In this document: one piece after another, positions 1,535 through 50,302 of the stretch
Layout: each line of letters opens with the position of its first letter
Position numbering within the stretch: position 1 is the stretch's first letter
Assembly (NCBI GenBank): GCA_016719385.1
Contig: JADJZA010000003.1
Coordinates: 4,161-68,160, forward strand
Source of the DNA: Candidatus Neomicrothrix subdominans
GTDB lineage: Bacteria; Actinomycetota; Acidimicrobiia; Acidimicrobiales; Microtrichaceae
Length of the DNA: 64,000 nucleotides
Direction: 5' to 3'
Notes under the pieces: model-generated
What the model saw: only the letters and a program-made list of their open reading frames with translations
Databases searched by the model: none
Told to the model about the DNA's origin: nothing
Translations under genes and position numbers: made by a program

Positions 1535-3559
1535 CTAGGCCCGTTTTCCGCACGTAGAGGCCACATGGGGTCGATGTCGGGTTGAGGTTGTGGCGGTCTG
1601 GGTGGGCCGGGTTCGTTGCTATGACTGGGTTCCAGGCCGGGTTGGGTGCCGTTCATGGTCCTTCACGCGGACACGACAGGGAGCGTTTGTGGGGACAACA
1701 TTCGGGTGGGTTTGGACGTTGACGTGCCTGATTCCCGTTGCAATGACAGGCTTGTAGTTTAGGTCGAGTGCTGGTAGTGTGTGGACAACATGTTCACTAA
1801 GCGTGTCACCGTCAAACGGGGCGATAAGACCTACGTGTACCTGAAACTGGTCGAGTCCTACAGAGATGGCGGCCGGGTCCGTCAACGCGTGATCGCCAAT
1901 TTGGGTCGCGAGGACGACCTCAAAGCGTCGGGACAACTCGAAGCGTTGGCAGCATCGTTCGCACGTCTCGAACCGCCGATGGTCGGGGTCCGCCGAGATG
2001 TCGGCGCCCTGCTGATCGTCGCCGACCTCTTGGAGCGTCTCGACCTTCAACGGACCGTTGACCGTCACGTCCCCCAACGCGGGACCGCCATGTTGTCCTG
2101 CGGTGAGGTCATCACAGCACTCATCGCGAACCGGATGTGTGGACCCTCCCCGCTCTATGACGTCGCCGGATGGGCCACCTCGGCTGCGATCCACGAACGC
2201 CTCGGGATCCCCGGGATGCTCCTCAACGACGACCGGCTCGGACGGGCCCTCGAACAGTTCGCGCCGATCTCGGACACTGTCCGTTCCGAGCTGATGCTGA
2301 AGGCGATCGACCGGTTCGGGATCGACGCCGGACGCCTCCATTTGGACCTCACCTGCATCCCGGTCTCCGGCGCCTTCGAGGACTCCACGATGATCGCCAA
2401 AGGGTGGGGACCCACCGGTGTGAAACACCAAACCAAACTGCTGTGCGCTACGAACCCCAAAGGTGTTGCGCTCTACACCCGACCGTTCCCCGGCAACACC
2501 GCCGAACTCTCAGCAATCGCCGACAGCCTCGAGATGATCGCCGCGAACTCCAAACCCGGACTGATCATCTGCGCGGACTCCGCCCTGGGGCACATCAAGA
2601 ACCTGGCCGCCGCCGATCAGGCCGGACTCCGTTTCGTGGTCCCCCTCCGCTCATCGACCGGGTTCCGCGAGAAATTCCTCACCGAGATCGGACCCGACCA
2701 GATGGTCCCCCTCCGATACGTCGCCAAACGCGAAGCCAACCTCCCCACCGGCCAACGCACCCAATACCTGGGGGCCCTCGCACCATTCGACACGATCAAC
2801 CCCGAAACCCAACAACCGTTCAACTGCCGGGTCGCGTACATCTGGTCATCCGAAGAAGCCACCTCAGTCGCCGACGGACGAGAACGCGCGCTCGCCAAAG
2901 CCGAAACGCTGCTCACCAAAGTCCGTAACGGGCTCGGCGGCCGCTACTACAAAACCCAGAAAGACGTCGACAACCGGGTCGCGGTCGTCATCGGCCACAA
3001 AATCAGGCCGTTCCTCACCGTCACCACCAGCACCGAACCCGACACCAACAAACCCACCATCAGCTGGGAACGCAACACCCATGCCATCACCAACACCGCA
3101 CGAACCGATGGCATCTACGCGCTCGCCACCAACATTCCCGGCAACATCACCGCCACCCGGATCCTCAAAATCTACAAAGACCAGCCACTCGTCGAGATCC
3201 GCCACCGAGAAGCCAAAGGCCCCCTCAAAGTCCGGCCGATCTTCCTCCACAACGACGACCGCATCACCGCCATGCTCTCCATCGTCGGGATCGCGCTCCT
3301 CGTCTACGGGCTCATCGAAACCCAACTCCGAACCGCGACCAACAACCAGCCAATCCCCGGCCTCTACCCCGAAAACCGGCCAGCCCTACCCACCGGCCGA
3401 AACACCCTCACCGCGTTCCAAGGACTCGGACTCACCTACACCCACCACGGCATCCGACTCGACCGCCTCACCACCACCCAACGAACCATCCTCAACCACC
3501 TCAACATCACCCCACCATGGGAAGAACAAGACCTCCCCAACTGCGGAAAACGGGGCTAG
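1535..3559 (+). mobile_element. IS1634-family insertion sequence
   Basis: Imperfect 18-bp terminal inverted repeat: ctaggcccgttttccgca (1535-1552) versus tgcggaaaacggggctag (3542-3559). Encloses a single IS1634-type transposase ORF. No target duplication recognised. Confidence 0.6.
1781..3559 (+). CDS. IS1634 family (IS4-like DDE) transposase
   Basis: 592-aa ORF. The N-terminus VTVKRGDKTYVYLKLVESYRDGGRVRQRVIANLGRED is the characteristic IS1634 transposase opening. Confidence 0.75.
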   Translation: MDNMFTKRVTVKRGDKTYVYLKLVESYRDGGRVRQRVIANLGREDDLKASGQLEALAASFARLEPPMVGVRRDVGALLIVADLLERLDLQRTVDRHVPQRGTAMLSCGEVITALIANRMCGPSPLYDVAGWATSAAIHERLGIPGMLLNDDRLGRALEQFAPISDTVRSELMLKAIDRFGIDAGRLHLDLTCIPVSGAFEDSTMIAKGWGPTGVKHQTKLLCATNPKGVALYTRPFPGNTAELSAIADSLEMIAANSKPGLIICADSALGHIKNLAAADQAGLRFVVPLRSSTGFREKFLTEIGPDQMVPLRYVAKREANLPTGQRTQYLGALAPFDTINPETQQPFNCRVAYIWSSEEATSVADGRERALAKAETLLTKVRNGLGGRYYKTQKDVDNRVAVVIGHKIRPFLTVTTSTEPDTNKPTISWERNTHAITNTARTDGIYALATNIPGNITATRILKIYKDQPLVEIRHREAKGPLKVRPIFLHNDDRITAMLSIVGIALLVYGLIETQLRTATNNQPIPGLYPENRPALPTGRNTLTAFQGLGLTYTHHGIRLDRLTTTQRTILNHLNITPPWEEQDLPNCGKRG

Positions 3560-3591: not shown

Positions 3592-4041
3592 GTGGAAGAC
3601 CTCAGCAGAATTTCTGAGTTCGCGGCCACGCGCCACGACGGGGAGCGCTGGTCGAGCAAGGAACTCGAAGGCACCTGGGCGCTCCTTTGGTGGTATCCGA
3701 AGGCCAGCACGCCGGGATGTGCAGCTGAAGGCCGCGCATTTGCCGACCACGCTCCCGAGTTCGACGAGCAGGGTTGTACCGTGTTTGGCCTCTCACTCGA
3801 TACCCCACAGGACAACCGCTCGTTTCGGGACGAGCACGACATGCCATTTGCGCTGCTCTCCGTGGACAACTTGGTTGCCACAGCGTTCGGAGTGCTGAGG
3901 GCGGTCGACTCGGAGCACGCGGAGCGGCGGAGCTTCCTGGTCCGACCGGACGGGTCTGTGGCCAAGGCCTACAACGTGGCGAACCCCGAGGATCACGCAC
4001 AAGACGTGCTCGACGACTTGGACGACCTCCTGGGTGGCTGA
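3592..4041 (+). CDS. bcp: Peroxiredoxin, Bcp/AhpC-TSA family
   Basis: WWYPKASTPGC peroxidatic Cys motif and overall Bcp-like layout. GTG at 3592 chosen because the ORF upstream overlaps the IS1634 end. Confidence 0.7.
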   Translation: MEDLSRISEFAATRHDGERWSSKELEGTWALLWWYPKASTPGCAAEGRAFADHAPEFDEQGCTVFGLSLDTPQDNRSFRDEHDMPFALLSVDNLVATAFGVLRAVDSEHAERRSFLVRPDGSVAKAYNVANPEDHAQDVLDDLDDLLGG

Positions 4042-5320
4042 CTCGATTGCTAGGTCCGCGCCGCCGGCGAACCAAGTCGAACGATTTTGCATCAGCGTTC
4101 TCGACCACATCCTGGTGATGTCGATCAGCGGGACGGGAGCACATGCGAAGCCGACTGCTCACGCCGTTCGATGGCTGATGAACGACTTGCGCGTCGAGGG
4201 CTTCGATGCGACGGAGAGCGCCGGTTGGATTGATCTCGGAGTCTCGGGCGAACCACCGGAGTTCTGCTTGACGAGTTCGGTTGCCCAGACACGAGACGGT
4301 ATCGACGATGTGGAGGAGGCGTGCCGGACGTTGCTCGGCGTCATCGCCCTGCTGCTCCCCGTATGGACAGCGGAGTCCGAGATCGCCGTTCACGCTGGCG
4401 GGATCGAGGCTGACGGACGCGCTCACATCCTTGTCGGACCATCCGGTGCGGGAAAGTCCACCCTCGTGGCAGCTCTGGCAAGCAGGAAAGCGCCGGTGTT
4501 CGGGGATGAGACCGTCCTCTTGGACCTTGACTCGCTTTCGGTGCGGGGCATCGCCCGCCCCATGGTGCTGGAACCCGAATCTGCCGGGTTCATCCCGGAA
4601 CTTCCCAACGCACCAATCGGATCGGCATTTTTGCCCATCTCTGCGGTCACCAGCCCTGCCGAGGCGAGTCCGCTTGGGCACATCTGGTTTCCCCGATTCG
4701 ACTCAGCGCACAGCGGCGCACCGACAATTCGCTCGCTGAAGCCGGGTCAGGCACTTCTTCGATTTGCGCGTGAGTGTGTCAGTGCGGACGTCGTCGAGGA
4801 GCAAGTGCTCTCGCGGCTCCTCGCGCTTCTGGGCTCGGTCCCGTGTAGCGAGATCGTGCACGGAGACGCCGACCTTGCTGCGATCCGGCTACTGGATCTC
4901 GCCCATTCGCTCGTCAACGAGCTACCAGCCGGGGCGCCTTCGGTTGTGCCTATGAGCATCCCCAGGACATCCGAGCCCACTCGACCGAATTGCACTCGCT
5001 TCGCCTTCGCCACCTCGATTTCGGTACTTCTTGTTGGTGACGAGCTCGTGCTCGCTCAACAGTCGACGCGGCAGGTCGTCGTTCTCAACGACGACGCCGC
5101 AAAGCTGATCCAGGGGGCGACGCCCATTTCCGTTGTGCCTGGAACGCCAGCGTCATCGCTCTTGGAGGAACTCGAAACATGCGGCTTTGCTCGCCGGGTG
5201 GCCGAACCAGGTTCTGGGTTGATCAAGCGGCTTGGCTGGCTGCGCATGTGGGCAGGTTGGCCCACACGTTGGCTTCGAAGCCGTCTCAAGGTCGTCAGAC
5301 TCAAAGCCACTGACTCGTAA
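4034..5320 (+). CDS. HprK-like P-loop kinase fused to a C-terminal PqqD-like (RRE-type) domain
   Basis: VHAGGIEADGRAHILVGPSGAGKSTLVAAL..FGDE resembles the HPr kinase C-terminal fold region. The C-terminal LAQQSTRQVVVLNDDAAKLIQG...LLEELETCGF looks PqqD-like. The GTG start overlaps the bcp stop by 8 nt. Confidence 0.6.
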   Translation: MADSIARSAPPANQVERFCISVLDHILVMSISGTGAHAKPTAHAVRWLMNDLRVEGFDATESAGWIDLGVSGEPPEFCLTSSVAQTRDGIDDVEEACRTLLGVIALLLPVWTAESEIAVHAGGIEADGRAHILVGPSGAGKSTLVAALASRKAPVFGDETVLLDLDSLSVRGIARPMVLEPESAGFIPELPNAPIGSAFLPISAVTSPAEASPLGHIWFPRFDSAHSGAPTIRSLKPGQALLRFARECVSADVVEEQVLSRLLALLGSVPCSEIVHGDADLAAIRLLDLAHSLVNELPAGAPSVVPMSIPRTSEPTRPNCTRFAFATSISVLLVGDELVLAQQSTRQVVVLNDDAAKLIQGATPISVVPGTPASSLLEELETCGFARRVAEPGSGLIKRLGWLRMWAGWPTRWLRSRLKVVRLKATDS

Positions 5321-5354
5321 TCGTGCTCAGCACGGCCCGGCCAGAACACGGTCC

Positions 5355-6359
5355 CTACCAACGGAGTGCATTCGAGTCGGAGATGTGCGCCACCGAAGTG
5401 ACGGTTCCCCGGCGGGTGGCAGCTACTGCCGCTTCGACGACCTGGTGACCATCGTTTCGTAGGTCGTTGCCGAGGAAGCCGTAGAGGGCCACCCTCCATG
5501 CGAGCCAGCCGGGCGACACGCGCAACCGCGATCCGGTCTCGACCACGATGTCCGATATCGGCAGGGACGAACCTCCGTTTGGGTCGGTCAGTGACCCGGC
5601 CTCGCCGTCCACAAGGGCGAGCTCGTCAAACGCCGCCGGTACCCCATTGCGGTCAGCCAGGAACGGCAGCGCTTCGGGTTCCACCAATGTGACACGGCCC
5701 ATTCGAACGATCGGCACCAAGCGAAGACCGATTCCGCGGAATTGGTCGGAGCGAGCAAGGGTCATGCGACCTAACTGACGATTCAAAGCCGCCAGCACCA
5801 GGGGCCTGTCTCCTACCGCCAGCGGTTGAGCGCGTTCATTCCACAATGCCGGCTGCGGGGAGCCGAATCGTTCGAGAGCGAGTCGTTCGGTGAGAACAAA
5901 TCGGACGCTCTCGCCGAGTGGCAGATTCGGGTCCGGTCCCTGGGGAAGAACCGCAGCCAACGCGTCCGCTCCGTCGCGCGTATCGCACAGAACGGACATG
6001 TTGAGATCGCCCACGCGTACCGAAACCGTGTGAACAGCCCCGAGAAACACCGCCTGGGTAAGGGGCGTCACCAGGGTCGCCGGGGGGCGGTAACGATCCG
6101 CTGGCTGCGGGGTGGCAACCACGCTTCCGAGCTGACCGGCCACCAGGGTGACGATCGCCATGGCGCGTTCCGCAGGAACGCCCCCGGTCGTCATCGCAGC
6201 TGCCGCGGCGCCGATCTCCCCATCCGTTCGCTCCAGCTCGTCCGCGGCCCGGAGTTGCAATGGGCCATAGAGGATCGGGAGCGGAAGGCCAGGGTGCCAA
6301 ACGACTGCCTCCGGCCCGAGGTGCGCACACGTGAGCCCGTCGGAGGGTGGCCCAATCAC
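5355..6359 (-). CDS. PqqD-like N-terminal domain protein with a weak kinase-like region that lacks a P-loop
   Basis: N-terminal AHLGPEAVVWHPG...AAADELERTDGEIGAAAAAM resembles PqqD. The GTG at 6359 forms a GTGA overlap with the upstream methyltransferase stop (6356-6358). Similarity to the kinase paralogues is weak and judged by eye. Confidence 0.4.
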   Translation of the reverse strand: MIGPPSDGLTCAHLGPEAVVWHPGLPLPILYGPLQLRAADELERTDGEIGAAAAAMTTGGVPAERAMAIVTLVAGQLGSVVATPQPADRYRPPATLVTPLTQAVFLGAVHTVSVRVGDLNMSVLCDTRDGADALAAVLPQGPDPNLPLGESVRFVLTERLALERFGSPQPALWNERAQPLAVGDRPLVLAALNRQLGRMTLARSDQFRGIGLRLVPIVRMGRVTLVEPEALPFLADRNGVPAAFDELALVDGEAGSLTDPNGGSSLPISDIVVETGSRLRVSPGWLAWRVALYGFLGNDLRNDGHQVVEAAVAATRRGTVTSVAHISDSNALRW

Positions 6360-7388
6360 GTCGGTTTCAGCGCCTCGATCACGATGCCGTCGAGTCGCCA
6401 TTCACGTTGTTTGAGGGGACTGATCCCCGCTCGGACGTTGATGTCGACGAAACCGGCATTGGCGAGGACCTGCCTCCATTCGCCAACCGGAAAGCGAAGG
6501 CACCGCAGCACGGCCAGGCGACTTGGGCCGTCCATGTCGGCCAACGGTCGGTGATCGTCGAGTCCGACGTCTGCAATACACAGTCGCCCACCCGGCCGGA
6601 GCACCCGGCTTGCCTCTGCGAACGCCGAAATATCTGGCAGGAGCAGGCAGAACAGGCCGTTGGCAATCACCCGGTCCATGCAGCGTGAAGCGATCGGGAG
6701 TGACTGTGCCTTCGCCTGGGCAACTCGCGGCGTCCGGCCGGACATGCGGGCCTCCGATGCGAACCGGGCCGCCATCTCGAATGTGAAGTCGATGCCCCAA
6801 CCCAGGGCACCAGCAGACTCCGCGACGGCGAGGTCGAAGCCGGTTCCACAGGCGAGGTCGAGCGCGTTCCCCTTGGGTAACGGGCATCAGCATGAACGGA
6901 TTACCAAGGCCCACGAAGGTCTCGACGACCCCTGGGGGCACGCTGGCCACCAGATCCTCGGGATACCCGCAACGTCGTGCCAACGCTGCGCCCGACTCGA
7001 ACGCTGGCTCCGTCCCCTCGCCGTTGGCCACGCGGGCATGGTGTGCCTGGGTCGGGTGCGCCCGAGTGGCAGCGGGCGGGGCGACGGCGTTGTCCGATGG
7101 ACGCGTCGCCGGGCTGGGCCGTCCGGTCGGCTCGGGGTGAGCGAGGACCCCTCGATACGACCCGACGACGACATCAGCGAGCTTGGGCTCCAACGACGCA
7201 AACATGCCGTGGCTGGGACGCTGGAACAACGAGGCGAGTTCGACGCCCCGGAACGAGTCAGCTTCGCGCTGGCGGGCGGCGAGCTGTTCAAAGTAGTCGT
7301 CCCCTTCTTGCGAAGCGTCCGGGCTGCGAGGGCTCTCCGAAGGTCTGCGGTCCACTCCGAGGTATGTTATCCATCCGTGAGCAGCCAT
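6356..7388 (-). pseudogene. SAM-dependent methyltransferase (ArsM-like), frameshifted or carrying a sequencing error
   Basis: The upstream frame ends CGYPEDLVASVPPGVVETFVGLGNPFMLMPVTQG. A +1 frame continues KGNALDLACGTGFDL...LRPGGRLCIADV (motif I and post-I). The frame change lies in a G-run near 6866-6870. Confidence 0.6.
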
Positions 7389-8573
7389 AAATGGGAAGAC
7401 CTGCTCGGCGCCGAGCCGCTTCGGGTCTCCGACGACCGGGCTTGGCTGAACGTTCCGGGTGGGGCGCTACTGATCGCGGCTCGGCCCCGCCGGCTCGCGT
7501 ACGTTGACGACGTCGGCGCCGAGCTGATTCGACAGCTCTCTTCCGGGGCGGTCCAAGGCCTGGCGCACGATCTGGCCGCAGCCCTCCGGGTGACGCCAGC
7601 CGAGGCCGATGCGTCCATCGGACAGATGGTGGCATCGCTCCACGATGCTGGCCTCGTGAAAGCAGGGCCGTTGTTCGTCGAGGCTTGGGCCGCCAGGGGA
7701 ACGCTCCCGCCAGCGTCCAGGCCGGTGCGCACTCTCAACCCGCCCCTCCCGGTCCTCGGTGACACCCGCGGGCTACTGGCAGGGCCGACCTCAGACAGCG
7801 CCGTGTGCGTGCAGGAGCAGCTCAGGTTCGGGCATCGACTGCCAACCGCAGAGGTGGACTGCAACGGCCTGAAGCTGACCCTCCGATGCTCGGAACCGTT
7901 CGACCCTCTGTTACCCGACCGTGTCGAGAGCAGCGGTGGTCGACCACTACGCCGACGTGAACCCCAGACGACAGCCCACCTGCATCTACTCTCGACGAGT
8001 GCCAGCTCAGACCGGTGGAAGCTCCTCAGCGGCGAAGGACGGTTGATCGGTCAGGGTCGGGACCACCAGGGAGCGTGGCAAGCCCTCGCCTGTGAGCTGG
8101 ACCTCGTCGAGGAGCTGGGCGGGCAACAACCGGCCCCACACTCCTCAGCGAACCTCAGAGTGCTGTCCTGTGCGTCCGGCCCGATGCTGATTCCCGGGAT
8201 CGACGGTGACCGCCTGGTTCGCTTCTCCCGACGCCTAGGCCGCGCTGGCATTTCGGTCGATTGCGGGCATCGTGTGCTCATCAGGAACGCAACCTCGCAG
8301 GAAGGCGTTCCCGGCAACACCCTCGTCCGAACAGGGCCGGATCTGTGGGTTCGACCGGCCGGGATCATCGTGCCGCACCGCCTCCGGAAGGCCATCCCGA
8401 TCGTTGCCGCCCTTGTGGCCTTCGCTGCGATCGACTCGGATTCGGCGGTCGTTCTCGACGTCCTCGTCCGGTTGGTCCGGACGTTCGTCGAGCTGCCCCC
8501 ACTCTTCGTGAACCCGGTCGACGATGACGGAGCCTTCGCTACCGCGATTATCGACAAGCTGGGCCCGGCCTAG
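7377..8573 (+). CDS. PqqD-like N-terminal domain protein with a degenerate HprK-like region
   Basis: LRVSDDRAWLNVPGGALLIAARPRRLAYVDDVGAELIRQL...LHDAGLV is PqqD-like. SGPMLIPGIDGDRLVRFSRRLGRAGISVDCGHRVLI aligns by eye to GQLVLLPAPSGNGKSTLTGAFVAAGWDYLGDEAIGV of 48222..49352, with the P-loop lost. The part of ORF 6660..8573 upstream of 7377 is antisense to the methyltransferase. Confidence 0.5.
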   Translation: MSSHKWEDLLGAEPLRVSDDRAWLNVPGGALLIAARPRRLAYVDDVGAELIRQLSSGAVQGLAHDLAAALRVTPAEADASIGQMVASLHDAGLVKAGPLFVEAWAARGTLPPASRPVRTLNPPLPVLGDTRGLLAGPTSDSAVCVQEQLRFGHRLPTAEVDCNGLKLTLRCSEPFDPLLPDRVESSGGRPLRRREPQTTAHLHLLSTSASSDRWKLLSGEGRLIGQGRDHQGAWQALACELDLVEELGGQQPAPHSSANLRVLSCASGPMLIPGIDGDRLVRFSRRLGRAGISVDCGHRVLIRNATSQEGVPGNTLVRTGPDLWVRPAGIIVPHRLRKAIPIVAALVAFAAIDSDSAVVLDVLVRLVRTFVELPPLFVNPVDDDGAFATAIIDKLGPA

Positions 8574-8619
8574 GCCCTCGTCACAGCCTGGGGCTACCGG
8601 GGTCGCCGTTGCCTGTCGG

Positions 8620-9237
8620 CTACCTGTTCTCGCCGCTGTAGCGGCCACCAGGATTTACTTTCGACTCGGGGGAAAGCCCGAGGGCTGGCCGTCGGTCAAA
8701 CCGGTACTCGGCCTCCGGCCCGTCGCGCTCCACGTAGTGGAGAAATACCTGGAGGTAGTCACCAGCTTCGCGATGCGGGCGGGAATGAGGTATCTCGCGC
8801 CCCTTGACTAGCAGCAGGTCACCCGGGTCAAGCTCGATCCGAACCTTCGCACCGCAAGCGTCTTCCAACTCGAAAGGCCACGGCTCCCCCCAATTCGCTA
8901 GGTGGACGGTGGCGGTGTGCCCGCACGCGTCTCGGTCGCGATGGCGAATCAGCTCGCAAGGCGGACGGTACCACCGCAGATACGAATAGGTCGGCTCTAG
9001 CTCTGTCGCAGCAACTTCACTCAGCGCACCAACAAAACCAGCGCACAACGTGTCGAACGCTGGGTCGCCGTACTTCGCCACCGTGTTGCCGAATGCTGGG
9101 TCGCTGACCAGTTGCCTGCCGGAGTTGAGCGTGTGGGCACACGCAACCAGGAACTGCACCAAACTGGGATCTACTGCGCCCCTCGCCACGACGTAGCCGC
9201 GCTCTCGGTAGCTAGTCGCAGGGTCTGTCCCTCTCAC
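8620..9237 (-). CDS. 2OG-Fe(II) oxygenase-like protein
   Basis: IRHRDRD (HxD) ... DPGDLLLVKGREIPHSRP (distal His) pattern. The GTG start overlaps the upstream stop (GTGA, 9234-9237). Confidence 0.5.
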   Translation of the reverse strand: MRGTDPATSYRERGYVVARGAVDPSLVQFLVACAHTLNSGRQLVSDPAFGNTVAKYGDPAFDTLCAGFVGALSEVAATELEPTYSYLRWYRPPCELIRHRDRDACGHTATVHLANWGEPWPFELEDACGAKVRIELDPGDLLLVKGREIPHSRPHREAGDYLQVFLHYVERDGPEAEYRFDRRPALGLSPESKVNPGGRYSGENR

Positions 9238-9842
9238 CAGCCTGCTCCTGGTTCCTCCGGGGAAGCGAGCCGCCAGGAAGCGTCCCCGACCGGCCCCACG
9301 TACTCAACGCGCAAAACGAGGATGACCGCAGGCGACGTGGACGCGGGTATCCAACGGGAGGAACCTGAAAGCATGACCAACGTGCCCGGCCGCAGTTGCA
9401 TCGAGCCGCTCGATACCTGCCAGTCGCCGGAATCGGGCCAAAGAGATGCATCCAACGCCAGATCGGGTACCTGCGCTATCTCGACGGGGTCCGACCCGGC
9501 GAGCTGGATCACCGCGCACAAGGCACCACCGGAGGAGTAGGCAACTGCTTCCCCGCCCACGACAGTGGTGATGAGGTCGCCCGAGATCCGTGTCAGATCC
9601 GAACCCGACCTCCATTCCACAATGTGTGCAGACGCCTCGGCTACCACATCCTCGATAGCCGCCAAAGGTTCGGCTGGCAACTGGTTGGCTGACCTCCATC
9701 CGGTGGCAGCCTGCAGGTCGATACCCACCAGCAGTTCCGGATCGAAGGTGAAAGTGTGGGCGCTCCTGCCGAACCACCGAAGCTGTTGAACGTCGACAAA
9801 TCCTTGAACCAGGTCGGTCCCGACTGCGAGTTCATCACTCAT
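9234..9842 (-). CDS. Hypothetical protein, possibly cupin-like
   Basis: Coding-like ORF. The ATG at 9842 overlaps the stop of the upstream gene (9835-9837). No motif recognised. Confidence 0.4.
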   Translation of the reverse strand: MSDELAVGTDLVQGFVDVQQLRWFGRSAHTFTFDPELLVGIDLQAATGWRSANQLPAEPLAAIEDVVAEASAHIVEWRSGSDLTRISGDLITTVVGGEAVAYSSGGALCAVIQLAGSDPVEIAQVPDLALDASLWPDSGDWQVSSGSMQLRPGTLVMLSGSSRWIPASTSPAVILVLRVEYVGPVGDASWRLASPEEPGAGW

Positions 9843-10563
9843 CAATGCCCCTTCCGTCGTTCAGAGTCCCGTCAGGCAAGCGACGGGCTGTCACCATCAG
9901 CACACTAGATCCGGGTTGGTCGGTATGGAGCTGCATCGGCAACGCCGCCGGAAGGACGTACCAAAGGTCGGGTCGGAGTTGGGTCTTGACTCCCACCGCG
10001 AGGTCGGTGCGATCGCCCGGGTGCTCGGTGCGGTACTGAAGAACCATCTCGGCCGGGTTTCGCACTTCCAGCTGAACGATCGAATGCTCATCGAGCAGAG
10101 CGAAGACGACCACGGCACTGTTCGGAACCGAAAACCGGGCCGTCGAACCGTCGAGTTGCAAAACCATCCGCTCATTCACCTGCCAGCGAACCTCGGGCAA
10201 CCCGGTGAACGCCGCAAGGTAGTCAGCGAGGCTGACTGCGATTCGGTCGAGAAGCCGCACACGCGATGCCATCGGGGATTCGTCCTCGACCGAACTGCGG
10301 AGCAACGTGGTAGCAACGCCCAGGCGGGCCGACGCCGCTTCCGAGTGGACCGATATCCCGTTGCTGGCGCGAATGAGAGGACGGAGCAGCTCGCCTGTTT
10401 CCTCGGGCAAGCCAGCCACCGCCAATACCGACTCATGGTCGCGGTGCTCGGTAGCACTTCGGAGGCGTTCGGAACCGATGACGTCTCTGGGGATGTTGCG
10501 GCTGGACGTCGGGGTCATAGGGCGGTACGCCTCCTCGTCTGGCTCAAGAAAACGGACTTCCAT
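9835..10563 (-). CDS. Hypothetical protein, possibly cupin-like
   Basis: Coding-like ORF that overlaps the stop of the P4H-like gene (10544). Start ambiguous: ATG 10563 or TTG 10578. Confidence 0.4.
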   Translation of the reverse strand: MEVRFLEPDEEAYRPMTPTSSRNIPRDVIGSERLRSATEHRDHESVLAVAGLPEETGELLRPLIRASNGISVHSEAASARLGVATTLLRSSVEDESPMASRVRLLDRIAVSLADYLAAFTGLPEVRWQVNERMVLQLDGSTARFSVPNSAVVVFALLDEHSIVQLEVRNPAEMVLQYRTEHPGDRTDLAVGVKTQLRPDLWYVLPAALPMQLHTDQPGSSVLMVTARRLPDGTLNDGRGIDE

Positions 10564-11152
10564 GGATCCAGCCGACAAGAACTCGTCGTGTTCCTTGCGT
10601 CACCGGGTGCACCTGGTGCAACAAGAAAGACGGGAATACGATCATCATTCCTTGGTCGACTTGGACGACGTTGCCGGGAAGCATCTCGAGTTCTCCACCG
10701 CGGTACTCATCAGGTTTCGACAGCATGACCACGAAGCTAAGTTTTCGGGTCGACATGGCCCCACCGACGTCCATGTGAGCTGCGAAGTGCCCCTCGTCGT
10801 TGGATGAATACTCCAGGATTCGCGGCAGATCGGATCGGTGAAACCCCTCGAGGCTGAAGTGATACAGCGAAGCATTCAGCTGCGCCAGCCGCTCCAGCAT
10901 CCCAGGGAATAACTCGGTTTGGAGCTGGGAGGTGACCTCGTATTCCACACAGCGGCGCTCCCTGGGGTTGGTCCCGTGGTGGCTGTAGCCGCCGGGAAAC
11001 CCAGGCATAGGGGCACTGGTAGTGACCCTGGCCGGGGTCGGGCGCTCGGCGCATACCCGGTCCACGATGTCCTGGCATCGCTCGCTCGACCAGAGCAGCT
11101 CACGCTGGACGGCGCACAGGTTGGAGTTGGGCTGAATCCCGGTCTGGCTCAT
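10544..11152 (-). CDS. Prolyl 4-hydroxylase-like 2OG-Fe(II) oxygenase
   Basis: HFAAHMD...RKLSFVVMLSKPDEYRGGELEM...GMMIVFPSFLLHQVHPVTQGTRRVLVGWI matches the HxD...H...R signature of the 2OG-FeII_Oxy_3/P4H group. Confidence 0.7.
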   Translation of the reverse strand: MSQTGIQPNSNLCAVQRELLWSSERCQDIVDRVCAERPTPARVTTSAPMPGFPGGYSHHGTNPRERRCVEYEVTSQLQTELFPGMLERLAQLNASLYHFSLEGFHRSDLPRILEYSSNDEGHFAAHMDVGGAMSTRKLSFVVMLSKPDEYRGGELEMLPGNVVQVDQGMMIVFPSFLLHQVHPVTQGTRRVLVGWIHGSPFS

Positions 11153-12033
11153 CAGCGCTCAACCACCAACGGGCTGGAGATGGCACGGCGCCGGACTTCA
11201 GCCCACAGATCGCGCGTCGAGCGTTCGATCTGAAGGCGGAGCCGCCAGCTCAGTTCCGGGCGGGATCGCTCTTTGGCGGGAGCCCACTTGACGTCTGTGC
11301 CGGTCGGACGCTTCGAGTACAACGTGAGTTCGCGCTCGCATTCCGCGGGGTCAGGACGGGGAAGGCCCCACATGGTGGCCAAGGAATCTGCGATGTCCAA
11401 CGGACGATCCACGAGCTGATCGTAGGTCACCACCTTGACCGAGTCGTCCGGCTCGGCGAGAGCAGCCTCGACAGCGCTGGTCCATCGCTCGATCAGAAAT
11501 GAACTGAACCTCGCACGCCCATTCGACGGCTGGTAGGTGCGAACCAAATCAACCCAGGGTGGTGGCTGATAGAGCCAACTTCGGACGGTTGCCGTCGGAG
11601 ACCGCGTGATCAGAACCGAGGGAAGCGACCCGGCGAACGCCGTCCGGATCGTTGGCAACTGGGGGGTACACACGGAGGAGAGCTTCAACACCGCCGGCGC
11701 CTGGGAGGACCGCCACCGCTTGGCCAACCAGCGGACCTGCCCATCGTTGACGGGAACCGGTGCAGGGGATGCCCAAAGGTCAAAGGGGAACGGCGGCTCC
11801 AGTCCGACGATCGATCCCCCCGTTGCCAGCATGCGACAGAGCAGCGTTGAGCCACAACGGGACGTGTGGAAGATCAATGGAGTTCTGGTCGCCCCAGGGA
11901 ACGCTGGCATGTCGCCGATCGGGTCTTCGGCCGCCCCCAACCTGCTGCCATCGACGATGCCGGTTCCATCTGCGCGGGCCATCGAGACCCCTGAAGGCGT
12001 GACCTGCCATGGGAAGGTTGGGTCATCTACCAA
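11152..12033 (-). CDS. Sulfotransferase-like protein
   Basis: IFHTSRCGSTLLCRML resembles the 5'-PSB loop and VLITRSPTATVRSW the 3'-PB motif of PAPS sulfotransferases. The stop overlaps the next start (TGATG at 11150-11154). The TTG start at 12033 is uncertain. Confidence 0.45.
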   Translation of the reverse strand: MVDDPTFPWQVTPSGVSMARADGTGIVDGSRLGAAEDPIGDMPAFPGATRTPLIFHTSRCGSTLLCRMLATGGSIVGLEPPFPFDLWASPAPVPVNDGQVRWLAKRWRSSQAPAVLKLSSVCTPQLPTIRTAFAGSLPSVLITRSPTATVRSWLYQPPPWVDLVRTYQPSNGRARFSSFLIERWTSAVEAALAEPDDSVKVVTYDQLVDRPLDIADSLATMWGLPRPDPAECERELTLYSKRPTGTDVKWAPAKERSRPELSWRLRLQIERSTRDLWAEVRRRAISSPLVVER

Positions 12034-13388
12034 TACCGCGTCTCCGGAGGCGCATCGCCGACGCGTGCATCCGCAATCAGCCCGATAGCAACCAGCTCAT
12101 CGAGCACCTCAGGCGCCCGGGATCGTTCGGCACGAGGAAGCGCCGCGACGAAGTCCCTCCATGCTAGGTAGCGACCGTCTGCGAGCGAAGTCACCAGCTG
12201 GCCAAGGGACTCGGGAAGGTCAAAGACACCACCGTGTGCCGCGATCAAGAATCGGTCGTCGGCGGCTCCATCGACCCACCCGAGACCGAGGCCGAACGAG
12301 CAGGCCACCCAGGGCTCTTGCTCCATCGGGTCGGCAGTGGCACGGAGCAGTGCGATCGGCCCCGCGAAGGGAGGTCTGGATGCACCAAGACGAATCGCCT
12401 GAACGGCGGACTCGAACAAGGTTCCCCCGAGTTCGCCGACAGCAGCGCCGAATGCGTCTGGGTCACCGAGCGAGGGGGTATCCGAGTCCAACGGGCCGTC
12501 GGGATGAAACACAAAGGGCACCCGCATGGCCGGCAGCTGATGGGCGGGCTGTGCCATAGCCTCAAGCACGTCCAGTGGGGACGGCCGAAGAAAGCCAATG
12601 GTCAGGTGAACGGCTAGCGAGTCGGCACAGATGACGTTGTGCCCGATCCCGTGCGGGACGAAAACCCCCTCCCCCACTTTCAGACGGTAGAGGTCTCCGA
12701 CGAGCGGGCCAACCTCGGAGGGGGTGACGGCCCGGTGTGGCGCCGGACCTGATGGTTGATGAAATGACCAGAGTTTCGCCCCCGTGGTCTGTACAACGAT
12801 CACATCGTGATCATCCCAATGTGGGCCAAATCCGCTGGCGGTCCCATCGGCGACATAGGCGTTGATCCGAACGTCCGAATCAGTGACCGTTCGCAGATCG
12901 TCCACCAGACGGCTCCACTTGGGGACGCGGCTATCCACCGAGTTGATGACCAATCCGACGTCAGACCTCACGATGCCAGCCAAGAGCGACGGGTCAAGAG
13001 CCTGGTGCTTTTGGCTCATCACGATCGGTCTGAGGGGGAGATAGTCACCATCCCGGGCCAGCTTGATGGCTGGCGAGTTAGCCGCGATGGCATCGCCGAC
13101 GTTGTTGGCCAGCAGCACTGCGTCCAGCGCATCGTCGGGATCGAGCCAGCTGACGAATTCGGGGTCGCACTCGACGGTGCGCGGGTCGGCGGTCCCCGAC
13201 CGGCGCGCGATCGCGACGAAATCGAAGTCCGGAAAGGCCGCTTGAAGCCGAACCGACGCCGCCCCCCGGGCCCGACCCCGTGCTGCCGCGAGGTCCGCTT
13301 CAAGGCCCTCGGCGGTGGCATCAAGCACCCGGAGGCGGCCGATGTGTTCAGAACCAAGTGTGTTCCACCCAACGTGGAACACACTCAT
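12027..13388 (-). CDS. JmjC / cupin-4 family oxygenase (ribosomal-oxygenase-like protein hydroxylase)
   Basis: NAYVADGTASGFGPHWDDHDVIVVQTTGAKLW...VGEGVFVPHGIGHNVICADSLAVHLTIGF matches the cupin-4 HxD...H core. The ATG at 13388 forms an ATGA overlap with the stop of the upstream gene. Confidence 0.7.
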   Translation of the reverse strand: MSVFHVGWNTLGSEHIGRLRVLDATAEGLEADLAAARGRARGAASVRLQAAFPDFDFVAIARRSGTADPRTVECDPEFVSWLDPDDALDAVLLANNVGDAIAANSPAIKLARDGDYLPLRPIVMSQKHQALDPSLLAGIVRSDVGLVINSVDSRVPKWSRLVDDLRTVTDSDVRINAYVADGTASGFGPHWDDHDVIVVQTTGAKLWSFHQPSGPAPHRAVTPSEVGPLVGDLYRLKVGEGVFVPHGIGHNVICADSLAVHLTIGFLRPSPLDVLEAMAQPAHQLPAMRVPFVFHPDGPLDSDTPSLGDPDAFGAAVGELGGTLFESAVQAIRLGASRPPFAGPIALLRATADPMEQEPWVACSFGLGLGWVDGAADDRFLIAAHGGVFDLPESLGQLVTSLADGRYLAWRDFVAALPRAERSRAPEVLDELVAIGLIADARVGDAPPETRYW

Positions 13389-14029
13389 GTGCTGGTGCAG
13401 GTGACGTGGATGTTGATCGTGGCGGCGTTCGGGAAATCGGTGCAACCGACCCCGGTGGAATTCGGATCAATCGCAATCGTCATCGAGCCCGGGCTCGTCC
13501 AAGTGGTCGGGACCGGCGTGGTCGTGATGAAGTCGCAGATGGGCCCCCCTGGCCCTGATGTGGCGGTCCAGTCGGCGCCGTTGACGGTGCACATCTGGAA
13601 CGGCGGGTCGATGTTGTTGAACGCGATATCGACGTTGAACGGGGAGGATCCGAGCAAGTGATCGTGGACGGTGAAATTGGCGTTGAACGGACCCACCATC
13701 CCGACATAGTTCCCGGTGTTGCTACAGTGAGTGATCCCGAAAAAGTCCATCTGCGACATCCCGGTCACGCAGGTTCCATTGGGCGCATTCGAAACAGCCC
13801 ATGACAGATTGCCGTTGAACGGGCTCGGCGAATAGGTGGCCGCTCCGGCAGCATCCGGTACGAGGGAACCGCCCTCGATCTTGGGCATCGACCACACGAT
13901 CCCGGCAGTGGTTGCGCCCACGGCCGCCTTCCTCAGCATGTCCCGACGCGATTGGCTGCCGTCGCCTGCTTCGGATTCGGATTCGGATTCGGATTCGGCC
14001 TCCAAGCCGGCGTTTTCCGATTCATCCAT
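13385..14029 (-). CDS. Exported protein with a twin-arginine signal preceded by an acidic (SE)n extension; candidate modification substrate
   Basis: MDESENAGLEAESESESESEAGDGSQ-SRRDMLRKAAVGATTAGIVW matches S-R-R-x-F-L-K followed by an h-region. A GAGGGGG Shine-Dalgarno lies 7 nt upstream of the ATG at 14029. The mature part is N/T/P/G-rich with 6 Cys. Confidence 0.6.
   Translation of the reverse strand: MDESENAGLEAESESESESEAGDGSQSRRDMLRKAAVGATTAGIVWSMPKIEGGSLVPDAAGAATYSPSPFNGNLSWAVSNAPNGTCVTGMSQMDFFGITHCSNTGNYVGMVGPFNANFTVHDHLLGSSPFNVDIAFNNIDPPFQMCTVNGADWTATSGPGGPICDFITTTPVPTTWTSPGSMTIAIDPNSTGVGCTDFPNAATINIHVTCTST
13970..13998 (-). repeat. Hexanucleotide repeat (gaatcc)n encoding ESESESESE
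   Basis: The + strand reads ttcggattcggattcggattcggattcgg. Confidence 0.85.
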
Positions 14030-14076
14030 ACTGGAGCCCCCTCGATCGCCAACAGTGAAGGCGCTACAATACGGCA

Positions 14077-15285
14077 GTGAACTCGTCCGGCGCAAGACCA
14101 TTCAGCGCTGGTCCAGAGCTGGTTACGCTGAGCCACGGCGACAAACACTTGATGTTCGGGGCAAACCCGAGGGCATCCTTGGCCACCGATGACCTGGGCC
14201 GCGACATCGCCCGTGCCTTGGTCGGCTGCGACACCGACGCTGCGACTTCGCTTGCTATGAGTCACGGAGCCGGTCAGGAAGCAGCAGGTGTCGTATCAGA
14301 GTTCCAGCAAGTTCTGGAAGCCATCGAAGCCCTCCCGCAGTTGGAGACTGAGGGGTCCGAGTATCAGCCAGGTACCCACATCCGATATCGGCTATTCGAG
14401 AGCGGACAACGGATCTTTGCTGGTTCTGGATTCCCGCTAGCGATCGGATACGGCGCGCGAGGGAGTTGCCTATGGAACCGCCTCGACCTCGACGACCCCG
14501 GAGCACTGCTCATCATAGGCCCACCTCCGCAGCCTCTGAGGATTCGGCTAGCCGGAGTACCTTGGCGCCACGAACTCATCGCAGCCTTGGGCGACCTGCC
14601 GTGGGAATTGGCAGACCACGATCCTGATGATGGCTTTTGGAAGGCCCAACTGCACCTCGTCGGCGGAGTAGTTGGCAGCACCAGAGCCCACCTGTTCTCC
14701 GTGACCGGGCACCTGCTGGGTACCAGCCGGACGGCCGACCCGTTTGTAGCATCGATCCGAGGGTTTCTCGACACCTCCAGGCTCGTCGCTCATCAAGGTC
14801 TCCTAACAATGTATGCGGGGCTGGTTGAGCGCCAATCGGGTCTGATGCTTCTTCCATGGCAAGAGTTCAGCCGACTGTTTCGCTTCGAGCGGCGGCTTCA
14901 ACGGCACGGATGGTCGCTGCTGCGTTCGCAGCGAGTGCTCTTAAGTCAGGACGGTTCGGAGATGTATCGACCTCCGTCGAGCAACGGAGCGCCTGTTGGG
15001 TCTCCTGAACGAGGTCGGCCAACGGCGATTCTCGTCCCAAACCGATTGTCACTCAATGGCCGGGCATTGGTCGCTGCACACTTCGTTCAGCTTCTGGACC
15101 GCGACCGACGCCCCACACCAGCAGCCCGGGCGAAGGTGGCGGAGCTGATGCTCGGGGTCGATCACGTTGGTGTCGACACCGACAGCGATGCGCAACTGGT
15201 GGACGCTGTCGTGGAGATCGGTCGCCAGCTCGATTCGGCATCCTCGGGCTCACTTGCGCAACGCGGTTTTCTCAGTTCCGAGTAG
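14077..15285 (+). CDS. PqqD-like N-terminal domain protein with a degenerate HprK-like region
   Basis: ELVTLSHGDKHLMFGANPRASLATDDLGRDIARALVG is PqqD-like. QSGLMLLPWQEFSRLFRFERRLQRHGWSLLRSQRVLL aligns by eye to the P-loop region of the intact kinases but lacks GxxGxGKS. Confidence 0.45.
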   Translation: MNSSGARPFSAGPELVTLSHGDKHLMFGANPRASLATDDLGRDIARALVGCDTDAATSLAMSHGAGQEAAGVVSEFQQVLEAIEALPQLETEGSEYQPGTHIRYRLFESGQRIFAGSGFPLAIGYGARGSCLWNRLDLDDPGALLIIGPPPQPLRIRLAGVPWRHELIAALGDLPWELADHDPDDGFWKAQLHLVGGVVGSTRAHLFSVTGHLLGTSRTADPFVASIRGFLDTSRLVAHQGLLTMYAGLVERQSGLMLLPWQEFSRLFRFERRLQRHGWSLLRSQRVLLSQDGSEMYRPPSSNGAPVGSPERGRPTAILVPNRLSLNGRALVAAHFVQLLDRDRRPTPAARAKVAELMLGVDHVGVDTDSDAQLVDAVVEIGRQLDSASSGSLAQRGFLSSE

Positions 15286-15463: not shown

Positions 15464-15697
15464 GTGAGACTGGTTCGTATGGATCGTCGCGATGAGATGG
15501 TTGAGCTGATCGGACGGCTGGGAGACGGGCCGGACGCTGGGATGGCGGCGGTCGCCCAGTTGAAGGACCTGCTGGACGAGGAGCGTCTGGTGCAGGTTGG
15601 CGAGGCTCGCCGGGCGGGTTGGTCGTGGGCGGCTGTCGGGGCCGCGTTTGGTGTCACTCCCCAGGCGGTTCACAGCCGGTTCGCGTGGCTGGTCTGA
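15464..15697 (+). CDS. Small HTH-like protein inside the ISL3 left end
   Basis: 77-aa ORF ending RRAGWSWAAVGAAFGVTPQAVHSRF, which looks like a helix-turn-helix. Convergent with the transposase. Confidence 0.35.
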   Translation: MRLVRMDRRDEMVELIGRLGDGPDAGMAAVAQLKDLLDEERLVQVGEARRAGWSWAAVGAAFGVTPQAVHSRFAWLV

Positions 15698-15704
15698 GAC
15701 GCCC

Positions 15705-16248
15705 TCAGGTCGTCGGCCGGGGTGGCTCCAGGATCGGTCGGGGTTCCCATGGGAGGGTCGTGGTGATGTTCCCGCACGCGAGGTAGATGATGGGGATGAA
15801 CGTGTTGGCGCGGTGGTGTCCGTAGCCCCGGTGGTTGAGCAGCCGGATCTTCGAGTTGGTCCCTTTCGAGGCGTGAGTTCGACAGGCCCAACTCGACCGA
15901 CGCGATGATCCCGGCCTTGTGGTCGCGGACCAGCTGGGACACTTTGACCATCGGCCGGATCCGGGAACGGCACGCGGACGTCAGCCACCGGTCAAGGTAG
16001 GCGGTGGCGTGGGTCGGGTTGTCGAGTTGGTAGAGGCCCCGGAAGCGTTCCTTGAGTTGTTGGGCCCGCCAGATCGAGTGGTGGGCACGCTGGTGACGTT
16101 TCAACACCGCCGCTTGGGCTTCGGTGTGATCGCCCGGTTTCTTCAACAGCGCCCACCGGAGATCGCGGGCGTCGTCGCCCGACAACGGAAGCCCGGTCTT
16201 GGTGAGTTGGGACCAGCGGATCGTTGCTGTGACTGCCTTGTTGAGGTG
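15705..16248 (-). pseudogene. ISL3 transposase, 3' exon-equivalent part, with an additional frameshift
   Basis: HLNKAVTATIRW...DLRWALLKKPGDHTEAQ...YLDRWLTSACRSRIRPMVKVSQLVRDHKAGIIASVELGLSNSRLE. After one extra A near 15868 the +1 frame reads GTNSKIRLLNHRGYGHHRANTFIPIIYLACG...* (stop 15705-15707). Confidence 0.7.
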
Positions 16249-19659: not shown

Positions 19660-19752
19660 TTATGTCGAGCAGACCCGCCACGATCACCGGTGATACCAGG
19701 GCGAACCCAACAGCCGAGACCGCTACTCGACATAATCGTCTACTCGACATAA
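19658..19752 (-). repeat. RIT1 right terminal inverted repeat
   Basis: Reverse complement matches 16362-16456. Overlaps the ritC stop codon. Confidence 0.85.
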
Positions 19753-21217: not shown

Positions 21218-21828
21218 CGGCGCACTCCTGGCATTCCGTCGCATCGACTGCGAACTCGCTGGGCCCCTTCGCCATGTAGACGGCTTTCCCGCCCTCGGAC
21301 TACTACGGGCCCTCCGCCCCAACCCGGAGCCGTCAGCCGACGGTGAGCCTGCCCGCCGACCAGACCGATGCTGGCCGGGAAGGGCGACCCCGAGATGGTT
21401 CCCACGTTCACTGTGTCTCGGTTGACAGGACCGGCGCCCAGCTCTGCCGCTACAGCCTCGCTACCACCGAACCCGCAGCACTGCGGTGATGGCCTCCCCA
21501 CCGACATCAATAATCGGCTTCGGAGTCGACGACCTCCCGAAAGGAGATCACCGTGCACTGTTACCCGGCCCAGATCCGCCAGGTTCGAGCCGGTTCCACG
21601 CTTAAGCGGGTTCAACCACTGGTTCACTCTCGTTACACCTCTCTGTCTCGCTTGCCGGACCCGCTGCCATCTGGCAGTACTGGCTACGCCCCGGCTTTGT
21701 CACCGCTGCTTCCCGCCCTCACCCACACCTCTGGGATCAGGCTGCAGTCAGCTTCACCGATCTGCTACGACAGACCAGCAGGGAGGGTCTCTCACCCTCC
21801 CCCGAACACACAGCGCCTCGTGGCGCAC

Positions 21829-49352: not shown

Positions 49353-49362
49353 CCGTTCGAGG

Positions 49363-50079: not shown

Positions 50080-50302
50080 GTCTCAGCGGCCCAGCCACAG
50101 GTTTTCGGCGACGCTGAACAGCACGACGACCGCGACGAAGCTCACCACGCACACCAGCACGTACAGCCCCGCGGTCTTCAGCCTGCGAAGCCCGCTCGAC
50201 AACCACGGCGGCGTCGTCCGCCTCGCTTCCCGACCGCCGGGTGCATCTTCTCCAACCGGCATGGATCGGACCCTACTCCGGCAGCCGCGTACCCTCTCCG
50301 GG

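Follow-up and report, generated by a model that had tools for sequence, protein, structure and literature searches.

A Mobile-Element-Flanked Gene Island of Candidatus Microthrix subdominans That May Modify Its Own Variable Tat-Signal Protein

Introduction

The enzyme repertoire closest to the one described here is that of the lasso peptides, which belong to the peptides that are made on ribosomes and modified after translation (RiPPs). The tailoring kinases, hydroxylase and methyltransferase of lasso clusters act on linear ribosomal precursors before export (PMC8498205). The tailoring sets comprise the HprK-like kinases PadeK, ThcoK and SyanK, the Fe/2-oxoglutarate (2OG) hydroxylase CanE, the O-methyltransferase StspM, putative sulfotransferases, and a discrete PqqD-like B1 protein as their RiPP recognition element (RRE). 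Here, we analyzed a stretch of 64,000 nucleotides (hereafter, the window) of contig JADJZA010000003.1 from the metagenome-assembled genome (MAG) IPN02 of Candidatus Microthrix (Neomicrothrix) subdominans and, within it, an island of 13 genes, g01 to g13, at positions 3592–15285. The proteins of the island are filed publicly under the name of this species. The island shares with the lasso sets a kinase of the HprK lineage, 2OG hydroxylases, an S-adenosylmethionine (SAM) methyltransferase, a possible sulfotransferase and PqqD/RRE domains. Unlike the lasso clusters, it has no lasso cyclase (C), no B2 protease and no short precursor. Its RREs are fused to kinase and kinase-like proteins instead of being discrete, and its candidate substrate is not a short peptide but a protein of 214 aa with a predicted twin-arginine translocation (Tat) signal.

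Other described systems resemble the island in part. The kinase g02 is a clear relative of TIGR04352 and thereby recalls Haft's HPr-rel-A system (TIGR04352 HprK_rel_A, TIGR04353 PqqD_rel_X and NTP_transf_5), but g02 scores below the TIGR04352 cut-off, no NTP_transf_5 gene is present in the island, and three oxygenases and the Tat protein are added. The JmjC protein g11 is similar to the ribosomal oxygenases (YcfD/RoxA, NO66 and MINA53), to the PF08007–RRE fusions and to BpmG/PbsQ, with which it would share JmjC_2 catalysis on protein or peptide side chains. BpmG/PbsQ of the biphenomycin-type RiPPs and the JmjC–RRE relatives hydroxylate protein or peptide side chains (PMC12257519; PMC12710340). 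Unlike these enzymes, to which it is at most ~30% identical, g11 has no MNIO or radical-SAM partner; its linkage is with a Tat protein and a kinase of the HprK-like type. Bufferins are RiPPs modified by MNIO enzymes; their precursors bear a signal peptide of the Sec type and are exported by the general route (PMC11626156). They are alike in concept, with an unusually long, fold-competent precursor that is modified in the cytoplasm and leaves by a general pathway and not by a dedicated transporter. Unlike them, the island has no MNIO or DUF2063 gene, its signal is of the Tat and not of the Sec type, and the mature protein has ~160 residues.

We propose, with a probability of roughly 45%, that this horizontally acquired set of operons post-translationally modifies the product of its own first gene, g12, before the folded protein is exported by the general Tat pathway. 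We would place the island under the RRE-assisted modification of a ribosomal product, outside every described class. A sequence-only reading of the window had likewise been unable to assign the combination to a known class, and the definitions of the lasso, HPr-rel-A and bufferin systems indeed do not apply to it.

Results

Variability of the Predicted Tat-Signal Protein g12

The gene g12 (13385–14029, minus strand) is the first of the operon that runs from g12 to g06 and encodes the candidate substrate. The protein has an N-terminal stretch of acidic character and the twin-arginine motif SRRDMLRK, and its mature part, ~160 residues long, has a high content of Thr, Gly, Pro, Asn and Ser. Its earlier designation as a Tat-signal protein is tentative: g12 itself scores 15.0 bits against TIGR01409, below the cut-off of 16.7, but its homologue in the divergent metagenomic locus L093 scores 18.1 bits, above the cut-off. 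The two proteins are ~51% identical over residues 25–67, which comprise the Tat signal and the early mature part, as against ~30% elsewhere. No match to the g12 family was found by a PDB sequence search, and none to g12 in plasmids.

The g12 protein differs from all the other proteins of the island in its variability. In the public collection, its 90% cluster contains 44 distinct sequences. At least 15 alleles occur at appreciable frequency, the most common ones being present on 58, 26, 23, 17, 11, 7, 7, 6, 6, 6, 5, 4 and 4 contigs. Meanwhile, every other island protein is represented by one dominant allele on 113–175 contigs, accompanied by rare singletons. Except for two sporadic changes at residues 141 and 160, the variation of g12 is confined to residues 96–118 (window 13678–13742), where the variable loop can be written as MD[F/V][F/Y/I][L/-]G[IT/D/H/N]HC. 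This patch accounts for most of the DNA differences within the island genes across 12.4 kb that are otherwise ~99.9% identical. Constant enzymes beside a variable product gene are what one would expect if an exported product is modified and under diversifying selection.

The nucleotide changes in the patch also bear on another explanation, namely that g12 is diversified by the mutagenesis typical of diversity-generating retroelements (DGRs) through a nearby reverse transcriptase, with the island being accessory to this process. The Asn/Asp switches at residues 107, 116 and 118 result from A-to-G changes at the first base of AAC codons, one site is occupied by N, H, D or IT, and together with an in-frame indel these changes form an adenine-biased pattern. 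Two reverse-transcriptase genes are found in the window, an open reading frame (ORF) with a partial RVT_1 match at 184–1512 and a reverse transcriptase/maturase at 19790–21322. The latter, however, is of the group II intron type (RVT_1+GIIM), and only ~8 positions of g12 are variable, an indel being part of the variation. A search of the window with blastn (word size 7) revealed no second copy of the variable region of g12 that would represent a template repeat. As the template repeat is missing from the window, we rejected a DGR as the cause of the g12 variability and regard this origin as very improbable.

Conservation of the Island Core in Divergent Loci

The genome scan with g11 returned 80 loci, and the relatives were then checked with targeted hidden Markov model (HMM) scans. 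The JmjC gene alone was shared by 79 of these loci; the sole locus sharing more was L010, a 4.3-kb contig of a Microthrixaceae MAG that also contains the best match to g11. It carries four genes, the first three of which overlap stop-to-start: the JmjC gene, a gene for a 404-aa protein referred to as "mid", a kinase gene whose product keeps the P-loop intact and ends in a PqqD domain, and the start of a PqqD-kinase-like gene. The JmjC protein of L010 is 29–31% identical to g11 over the full length. Two close relatives of L010, the loci L090 and L091, were found in the metagenome scan.

The metagenome scan also revealed the locus L093/L092, with a GC content of ~62–64%. An HprK-like kinase gene (TIGR04352, 2.2e-16) is transcribed there divergently from a series of genes that begins with a g12-like Tat protein and continues with JmjC, a g06-like gene, a g09-like gene, a further 2OG-like paralogue and "mid". 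No counterpart of the "mid" family of L010 and L092 was detected among g03, g05, g07, g08 and g13. The g12-like protein of L093 (33% identity, 2.7e-13) occupies the equivalent position before JmjC, and the adjacency of the two genes with overlapping codons is kept in this divergent locus. The g09-like 2OG oxygenase of L093 matches at 2.6e-32. From the gene content of L093/L092, the conserved core is the predicted Tat protein, JmjC, g06, the P4H-like oxygenase and the HprK-like kinase, at ~30–38% protein identity. The proposed check for synteny of the gene set in related genomes thus had a partly positive outcome: the five-gene core recurs in L093/L092, and JmjC together with the kinase–PqqD gene recurs in L010/L091, but for seven genes of the island no relatives were detected there.

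The Oxygenases g11 and g09 and the Putative Oxygenase g06

The two better-defined oxygenases of the island, which had been described as a JmjC enzyme and a P4H-like 2OG enzyme, both exceed the Pfam gathering scores. The g11 protein (12027–13388, minus strand) matches JmjC_2 (PF08007) at 6.6e-15 with 55.2 bits (gathering score 22), and its best PDB matches are the ribosomal oxygenases NO66, MINA53 and YcfD (2.5e-9). The segment of its iron triad, HWDDHD...GH, is kept in the JmjC protein of L010. The JmjC and "mid" proteins end in a common domain of ~80 aa (hhalign, P=5.7e-7), which has a weak similarity to PqqD (P=0.0037). This lends weak support to a winged-helix/RRE-like assignment of the g11 tail. 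JmjC (PF08007)–RRE fusions have been reported, with bacterial homologues in RiPP-like contexts (PMC12710340), and the combination of JmjC with a weakly PqqD-like tail in g11 fits these fusions. Another unusual JmjC arrangement was seen in L094 (metagenome contig JAESGR010000971.1, 3–11164), which contains three large ORFs of ~680–900 aa; the first two have two or three separate matches to JmjC proteins each, and the third has weaker, split ones.

The g09 protein (10544–11152, minus strand) is a P4H/PKHD-type Fe(II)/2OG oxygenase by Pfam. It matches 2OG-FeII_Oxy_3 (PF13640) at 7.6e-15 with 56.1 bits (gathering score 27) and a Fe2+-dependent dioxygenase family of NCBIfam at 1.9e-18, and it resembles the YbiX/PKHD-type hydroxylases.

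These similarities of g09 would also agree with a housekeeping target, and so would the place of ribosomal oxygenases as the nearest relatives of g11 with a solved structure. In that case, the hydroxylases and the kinase could have EF-Tu or a ribosomal protein, for example, as their substrate, in the manner of YcfD/NO66 and the bacterial prolyl hydroxylases, with g12 being merely co-transcribed and under a selection of its own. We consider this quite improbable. The island is foreign by its third-position GC and has no close copy in the GTDB species representatives (best match 29%), its combination of enzymes is odd for a housekeeping modifier, and the position of g12 as the first gene, which is kept in L093, argues for a dedicated substrate.

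The third oxygenase, g06 (8620–9237, minus strand; 205 aa), is encoded by the last gene of the operon. It had been recognized by an HxD..H pattern, and this part of the claim stands, as H99, D101 and H151, together with R102 and R153, are invariant across five homologues at 22–38% identity; on the other hand, no match was found in Pfam or by a PDB sequence search. We therefore treat g06 as a putative oxygenase of the Fe(II)/2OG type whose family, with the motif HRDR...H.R, has not been described. Matches of the g06 profile to polyubiquitin entries in the PDB were rejected as artefacts, since no stretch of them passed. L093 encodes a homologue of g06 (38%, 1e-38), and so does a Cupriavidus plasmid (36% identity); in both cases a 2OG oxygenase is its neighbour. 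On this plasmid of Cupriavidus oxalaticus from sewage sludge (NZ_CP038639.1; locus L100, 5130–9145), the operon is headed by a gene for a protein with ~15 "TEMSPG" repeats, followed by genes for a 428-aa 2OG-like protein, an FkbM methyltransferase, the g06-family protein and a 2OG-Fe(II) oxygenase. It may be an analogous system for the hydroxylation of a repeat protein.

The Kinase g02 and the Kinase-Like Proteins g03, g05, and g13

The g02 gene (4034–5320, plus strand) encodes a kinase region (residues ~90–295) followed by a C-terminal PqqD/RRE-like domain (~320–400). Its description as an HprK-like kinase with an intact P-loop was confirmed with TIGR04352, a family HMM and Foldseek. The match to TIGR04352 (E=1.2e-17) reaches 63.9 bits, which is below the family cut-off of 200, and the HMM built from 89 stand-alone relatives matches g02 at 1.9e-58. 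The P-loop reads GPSGAGKST, and H120, S137, G140, K141 and D158 are conserved. In the AlphaFold2 (AF2) model, the pLDDT of the kinase core is 70–94, and the Foldseek matches of this core are PEPCK and HprK/P. In this way, g02 has the Walker A motif, the conserved His and Asp residues and the fold of an HprK/PEPCK-fold P-loop kinase. An exhaustive search of representatives yielded 2305 distant relatives, none of them more than 38% identical, and word-index homology searches with g02 and g05 found no match outside Microthrix. The architecture of a kinase with a C-terminal PqqD domain also occurs in P0040, P0055, P0133, P0161 and L010. We conclude that g02 combines an RRE-like domain with an HprK-related kinase that has a P-loop and falls in the HprK lineage of peptide/protein kinases.

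A related arrangement was noticed in P0155 (JGI metagenomes 3300043331 and 3300056388), where a 536-aa fusion of 2OG-FeII_Oxy_3 with an HprK-like kinase is encoded directly after a 195-aa PqqD-family gene. This fusion and the adjoining gene are independent evidence that oxygenase, HprK-like kinase and PqqD functions work together.

PqqD-like domains had been predicted in four proteins of the island. The N-terminal domain of g05 (7377–8573, plus strand; residues 25–118) scores 22.0 bits against Pfam PqqD (PF05402; E=2e-4), close to the gathering score of 23.4, and matches a custom PqqD profile at 1.9e-8 (hhalign P=8e-7). The C-terminus of g02 matches the PqqD profile with P=1.1e-4, and its AF2 model shows beta-beta-beta and then alpha at a pLDDT of ~55–61. 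The sequence comparisons thus support a PqqD/RRE domain in these two proteins. For g13 (14077–15285, plus strand), the N-terminal match is marginal (P=0.065), and an RRE-like domain is plausible by paralogy, as g05 and g13 are paralogous (phmmer, 2e-10). The prediction is not supported for g03 (5355–6359, minus strand), whose N-terminus gave P=0.54.

The same three proteins, g03, g05 and g13, had been described as kinase paralogues with degenerate P-loops. Only the paralogy of g05 and g13 was confirmed; all three lack BLAST-level similarity to g02, and their profile signal is weak. In g03, an orphan of 334 aa that has no match in Pfam or NCBIfam, residues 108–205 match the N-domain of the HprK-related kinases (hmmsearch, 12.9 bits), a score reached in 0 of 1000 shuffles. 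The joint profile of g13, g05 and g03 aligns "LLTMYAGLVERQSGLMLLPWQEFSRLF" onto "lHAGaVe.dGrAvlL.GpSGsGKSTL" of the kinase family; the hhalign score of this P-loop region is 29.7, whereas none of 120 column shuffles exceeded 20.2. These controls give modest support to a kinase-like region with a degenerate P-loop (PGIDGDRLV in g05, PWQEFSRLF in g13; g03 has none). The Walker A Lys and Ser/Thr are missing in all three proteins, which would therefore be non-catalytic.

The Other Island Proteins

The first gene of the island, g01 (3592–4041, plus strand), encodes a Bcp/PrxQ-type peroxiredoxin (AhpC/Bcp) according to both Pfam (AhpC-TSA, 1.6e-25) and NCBIfam (thiol peroxidase, 3.8e-19). The SAM methyltransferase g04 (6356–7355, minus strand) had been called ArsM-like. 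This holds for the intact allele found elsewhere, which belongs to the arsenite methyltransferase family (2.6e-22 to 9e-32), but the gene is broken in this genome. On the six other contigs examined, g04 is intact in every case (333 aa), and the deletion of 2 bp that disrupts it is confined to the window. Either true strain variation or a mistake of the assembly may lie behind it.

The g10 protein (11152–12033, minus strand), which had been labelled sulfotransferase-like, contains a PAPS-loop-like segment, SRCGSTLL. Stf0 (residues 53–74, E=0.032) and Sulfotransfer_3 (residues 181–228, E=0.02) match at the expected N- and C-terminal positions, though both are below the cut-off (15.6 vs. 27 and 14.2 vs. 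22 bits), and no match was found in the PDB or NCBIfam. Hence, a sulfotransferase is possible, but the call is weak. Overall, the profile searches upheld the assignments of the island proteins in part and reduced those of the PqqD domains and the sulfotransferase. The parallel that had been drawn with the tailoring enzymes of lasso clusters is retained, as a kinase, hydroxylases and a methyltransferase are present and a sulfotransferase is possible.

The products of g07 (9234–9842, minus strand; 202 aa) and g08 (9835–10563, minus strand; 242 aa, or 227 aa in most gene calls) have no match in Pfam, NCBIfam, PADLOC or the PDB. The PADLOC defence profiles gave P-loop noise for g02 alone and nothing for the nine other proteins scanned, and an anti-phage defence system was rejected on this basis.

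Core Enzymes and Precursors of Known Systems

The Pfam and NCBIfam scans of the island genes and of all the large ORFs of the 64-kb window detected no Asn_synthase, transglutaminase, radical SAM, YcaO or LanC. What they detected in the window were transposases, recombinases, genes of fatty-acid and CoA metabolism, an amidase and the like. The absence of known RiPP core enzymes, both from the island and from the large ORFs just outside it, therefore agrees with what had been read from the letters alone. Since the intergenic gaps of the island are at most 47 bp, there is no room in them for a short precursor gene of the lasso type, and none was found there; overlapping small ORFs were not exhaustively excluded. 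The sole additional small ORF by the island is located 3' of g13 (15464–15697, plus strand). It is HTH-like, has 72–77 aa, and its end reads "...GWSWAAVGAAFGVTPQAVHSRF...". Eight single-nucleotide polymorphisms relative to the other contigs lie around it at 15569–15733, much more densely than in the island proper.

It should be noted that a separate, native locus of the window (GC at the third codon position, GC3, of 0.85–0.9) resembles the HPr-rel-A system, the canonical four-gene form of which is seen in L007. It comprises a 397-aa protein with an N-terminal PqqD domain (PF05402, 6e-9) fused to HprK_rel_A (1.9e-20; 48222–49415, minus strand), an NTP_transf_5 nucleotidyltransferase (1.9e-23; 54365–55468, minus strand), a stand-alone PqqD-like protein of 100 aa (55465–55767, minus strand) and a truncated LegC/PseC-type sugar aminotransferase (50261–51124, plus strand). 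The native DNA also contains two paralogous DUF4143 genes ~10 kb apart (32758–34023 and 44207–45499, both on the minus strand), the second of which also matches AAA_14.

Setting and Origin of the Island

That thirteen tightly packed genes lie between an IS1634 copy and mobile-element debris was confirmed by independent gene calls on six metagenome contigs, which agree on the gene boundaries and are 99.8–99.9% identical to the window. The intergenic spacing ranges from -20 to +47 bp. The genes g12, g11, g10, g09, g08, g07 and g06 form a single minus-strand operon with overlapping stop and start codons, and the pairs g01/g02 (gap of -8 bp) and g04/g03 are likewise coupled.

The left border is an IS1634-type transposase gene (1781–3559). 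On the right, an ISL3 fragment is followed by a RIT trio of tyrosine recombinases, the group II intron reverse transcriptase, a second ISL3 fragment and a second RIT; each of the two RIT elements (16520–19660 and 22921–25657) contains three consecutive tyrosine recombinases. The flanks of the island are thus a dense junkyard of mobile elements (two RITs, two reverse transcriptases and two ISL3 fragments). The GC3 of the island is ~0.64–0.77, compared with 0.85–0.94 in the native-looking genes further along the window, and no close copy of g11 was found in the GTDB species-representative genomes, in which the best match is 29% identical. The low GC3, the mobile-element flanks and the lack of a close g11 copy indicate that the island is foreign and variable between strains or species. 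The island is nevertheless abundant: within the metagenome collection, 294 indexed blocks contain the g09 protein in its exact form.

Discussion

The proposal that the island modifies g12 can be formulated as follows. Docking on g12 would fall to the RRE-type domains of g02 and g05, with a probable share of g13 and a possible one of the g11 winged-helix tail, and its most likely site would be the signal and N-terminal region of g12, which is unusually conserved. Three oxygenases of the Fe(II)/2OG type, namely JmjC, the P4H-like enzyme and g06, would hydroxylate side chains of g12, with the prolines of the conserved X-Pro-Gly motifs and the Asn/Asp sites as candidates. The g02 kinase would then decorate the hydroxyl groups, and g10 (sulfotransferase-like) and g04 (methyltransferase) might do so as well in the version found in Microthrix, which is the more elaborate one. 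The proteins g03, g05 and g13 may serve as catalytically dead scaffolds of the kinase fold, while the peroxiredoxin g01 could remove the peroxide arising from uncoupled oxygenase turnover. Folded and modified, g12 would leave the cell via Tat as a secreted or surface protein under diversifying selection. The Pfam scans found no protease or transporter in the island, and export by the general Tat pathway would explain this.

Several observations weigh against this proposal. The choice of g12 as the substrate is drawn solely from gene order, co-conservation and variability. No relatives of g03, g04, g05, g07, g08, g10 and g13 were detectable in the syntenic loci; these genes are thus only candidate members of a shared pathway, and the conserved unit is only part of the island. 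The kinase of L093 lacks a full PqqD domain. Two of the four RRE domains originally claimed are unsupported, and the kinase-like fold of g03, g05 and g13 has modest statistics and no usable model (for g13, the AF2 model built on a four-row alignment has a pLDDT of 32.6). In the window, g04 is frameshifted by the 2-bp deletion at 6863. In the metagenomic locus L003, a DDE_Tnp_1 transposase gene (276 aa; L003 12616–13605) is inserted between the equivalents of g05 and g06, which shows that insertion sequence (IS) activity is ongoing inside the island. Owing to this interruption and the g04 frameshift, parts of the island may be dispensable or decaying. Finally, distant relatives of g06 (22–26% identity), encoded on Xenorhabdus and Pantoea plasmids, are found in small-molecule-type contexts, beside genes for MFS transporters, ferritin-like proteins and sterol desaturases.

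The frameshift and the inserted transposase gene would also be in line with a decaying remnant of a conventional RiPP cluster, such as a lasso cluster, which has lost its cyclase, protease and precursor in the traffic of IS and RIT elements and retains the tailoring genes as non-functional cargo. The IS1634, ISL3, RIT and intron elements on the flanks, the loss of the P-loop in three kinase-like proteins and the similarity of the enzyme types to those of lasso tailoring (PMC8498205) can be read in the same way. However, all the other ORFs of the island are intact, each with one dominant allele across more than 100 contigs, and no fragments of an Asn synthase or a transglutaminase were present among the ORFs scanned. 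Moreover, the divergent loci L093 and L010 keep intact, overlapping ORFs at ~30–38% identity and likewise have no lasso genes, the Tat protein being kept instead. We consider such a remnant improbable.

The genes beside the distant g06 relatives point in another direction, namely that the enzymes tailor a small molecule (a lipid, a sugar or a xenobiotic), in which case the PqqD-like parts would be winged-helix domains of a generic kind, and g12 would be exported for an unrelated role, as a binding or accessory protein. ArsM-like methyltransferases and sulfotransferases often use small molecules, and in L009, as well as more loosely in L093, sugar and glycosyltransferase genes surround or adjoin HprK-related kinases with PqqD. 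Still, the JmjC_2/ROX and P4H-type enzymes are protein hydroxylases, the characterized members of the HprK family phosphorylate proteins or peptides (PMC8498205), and the island has neither a scaffold-forming enzyme nor a transporter. The overlap of g12 with JmjC, maintained in a divergent locus, also speaks against it, and we regard a small-molecule substrate as unlikely.

If the modification of g12 is taken as the function of the island, a more specific claim can be considered, which we hold to be doubtful in its full form. It is that the island represents an undescribed class of RRE-guided maturation. In this class, a Tat-exported, hypervariable protein of ~17 kDa would be multiply hydroxylated by three oxygenases (JmjC, P4H-like and the new HRDR...H.R family), O-phosphorylation of its hydroxyl groups would follow, joined in Microthrix by sulfation or methylation, RRE proteins with a dead kinase fold would act as docking scaffolds, and the Tat pathway would replace the protease and the transporter of the RiPP systems. 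Should this be true, leader- or RRE-guided chemistry would extend beyond short peptides with class-defining cyclases to whole folded proteins exported by Tat, and enzymes seen so far only as accessory tailoring would suffice for it. A role would also be assigned to the dead-kinase RRE fusions and to the g06-type oxygenases, which are found on proteobacterial plasmids too. The contrast between constant enzymes and one multi-allelic first gene provides a reusable rule for genome mining aimed at RiPP-like protein substrates.

In wastewater treatment, Microthrix is one of the main causes of bulking and foaming. A strain-variable, heavily decorated secreted protein would be a plausible player in the surface properties of these bacteria, in their interactions with phages or in competition.

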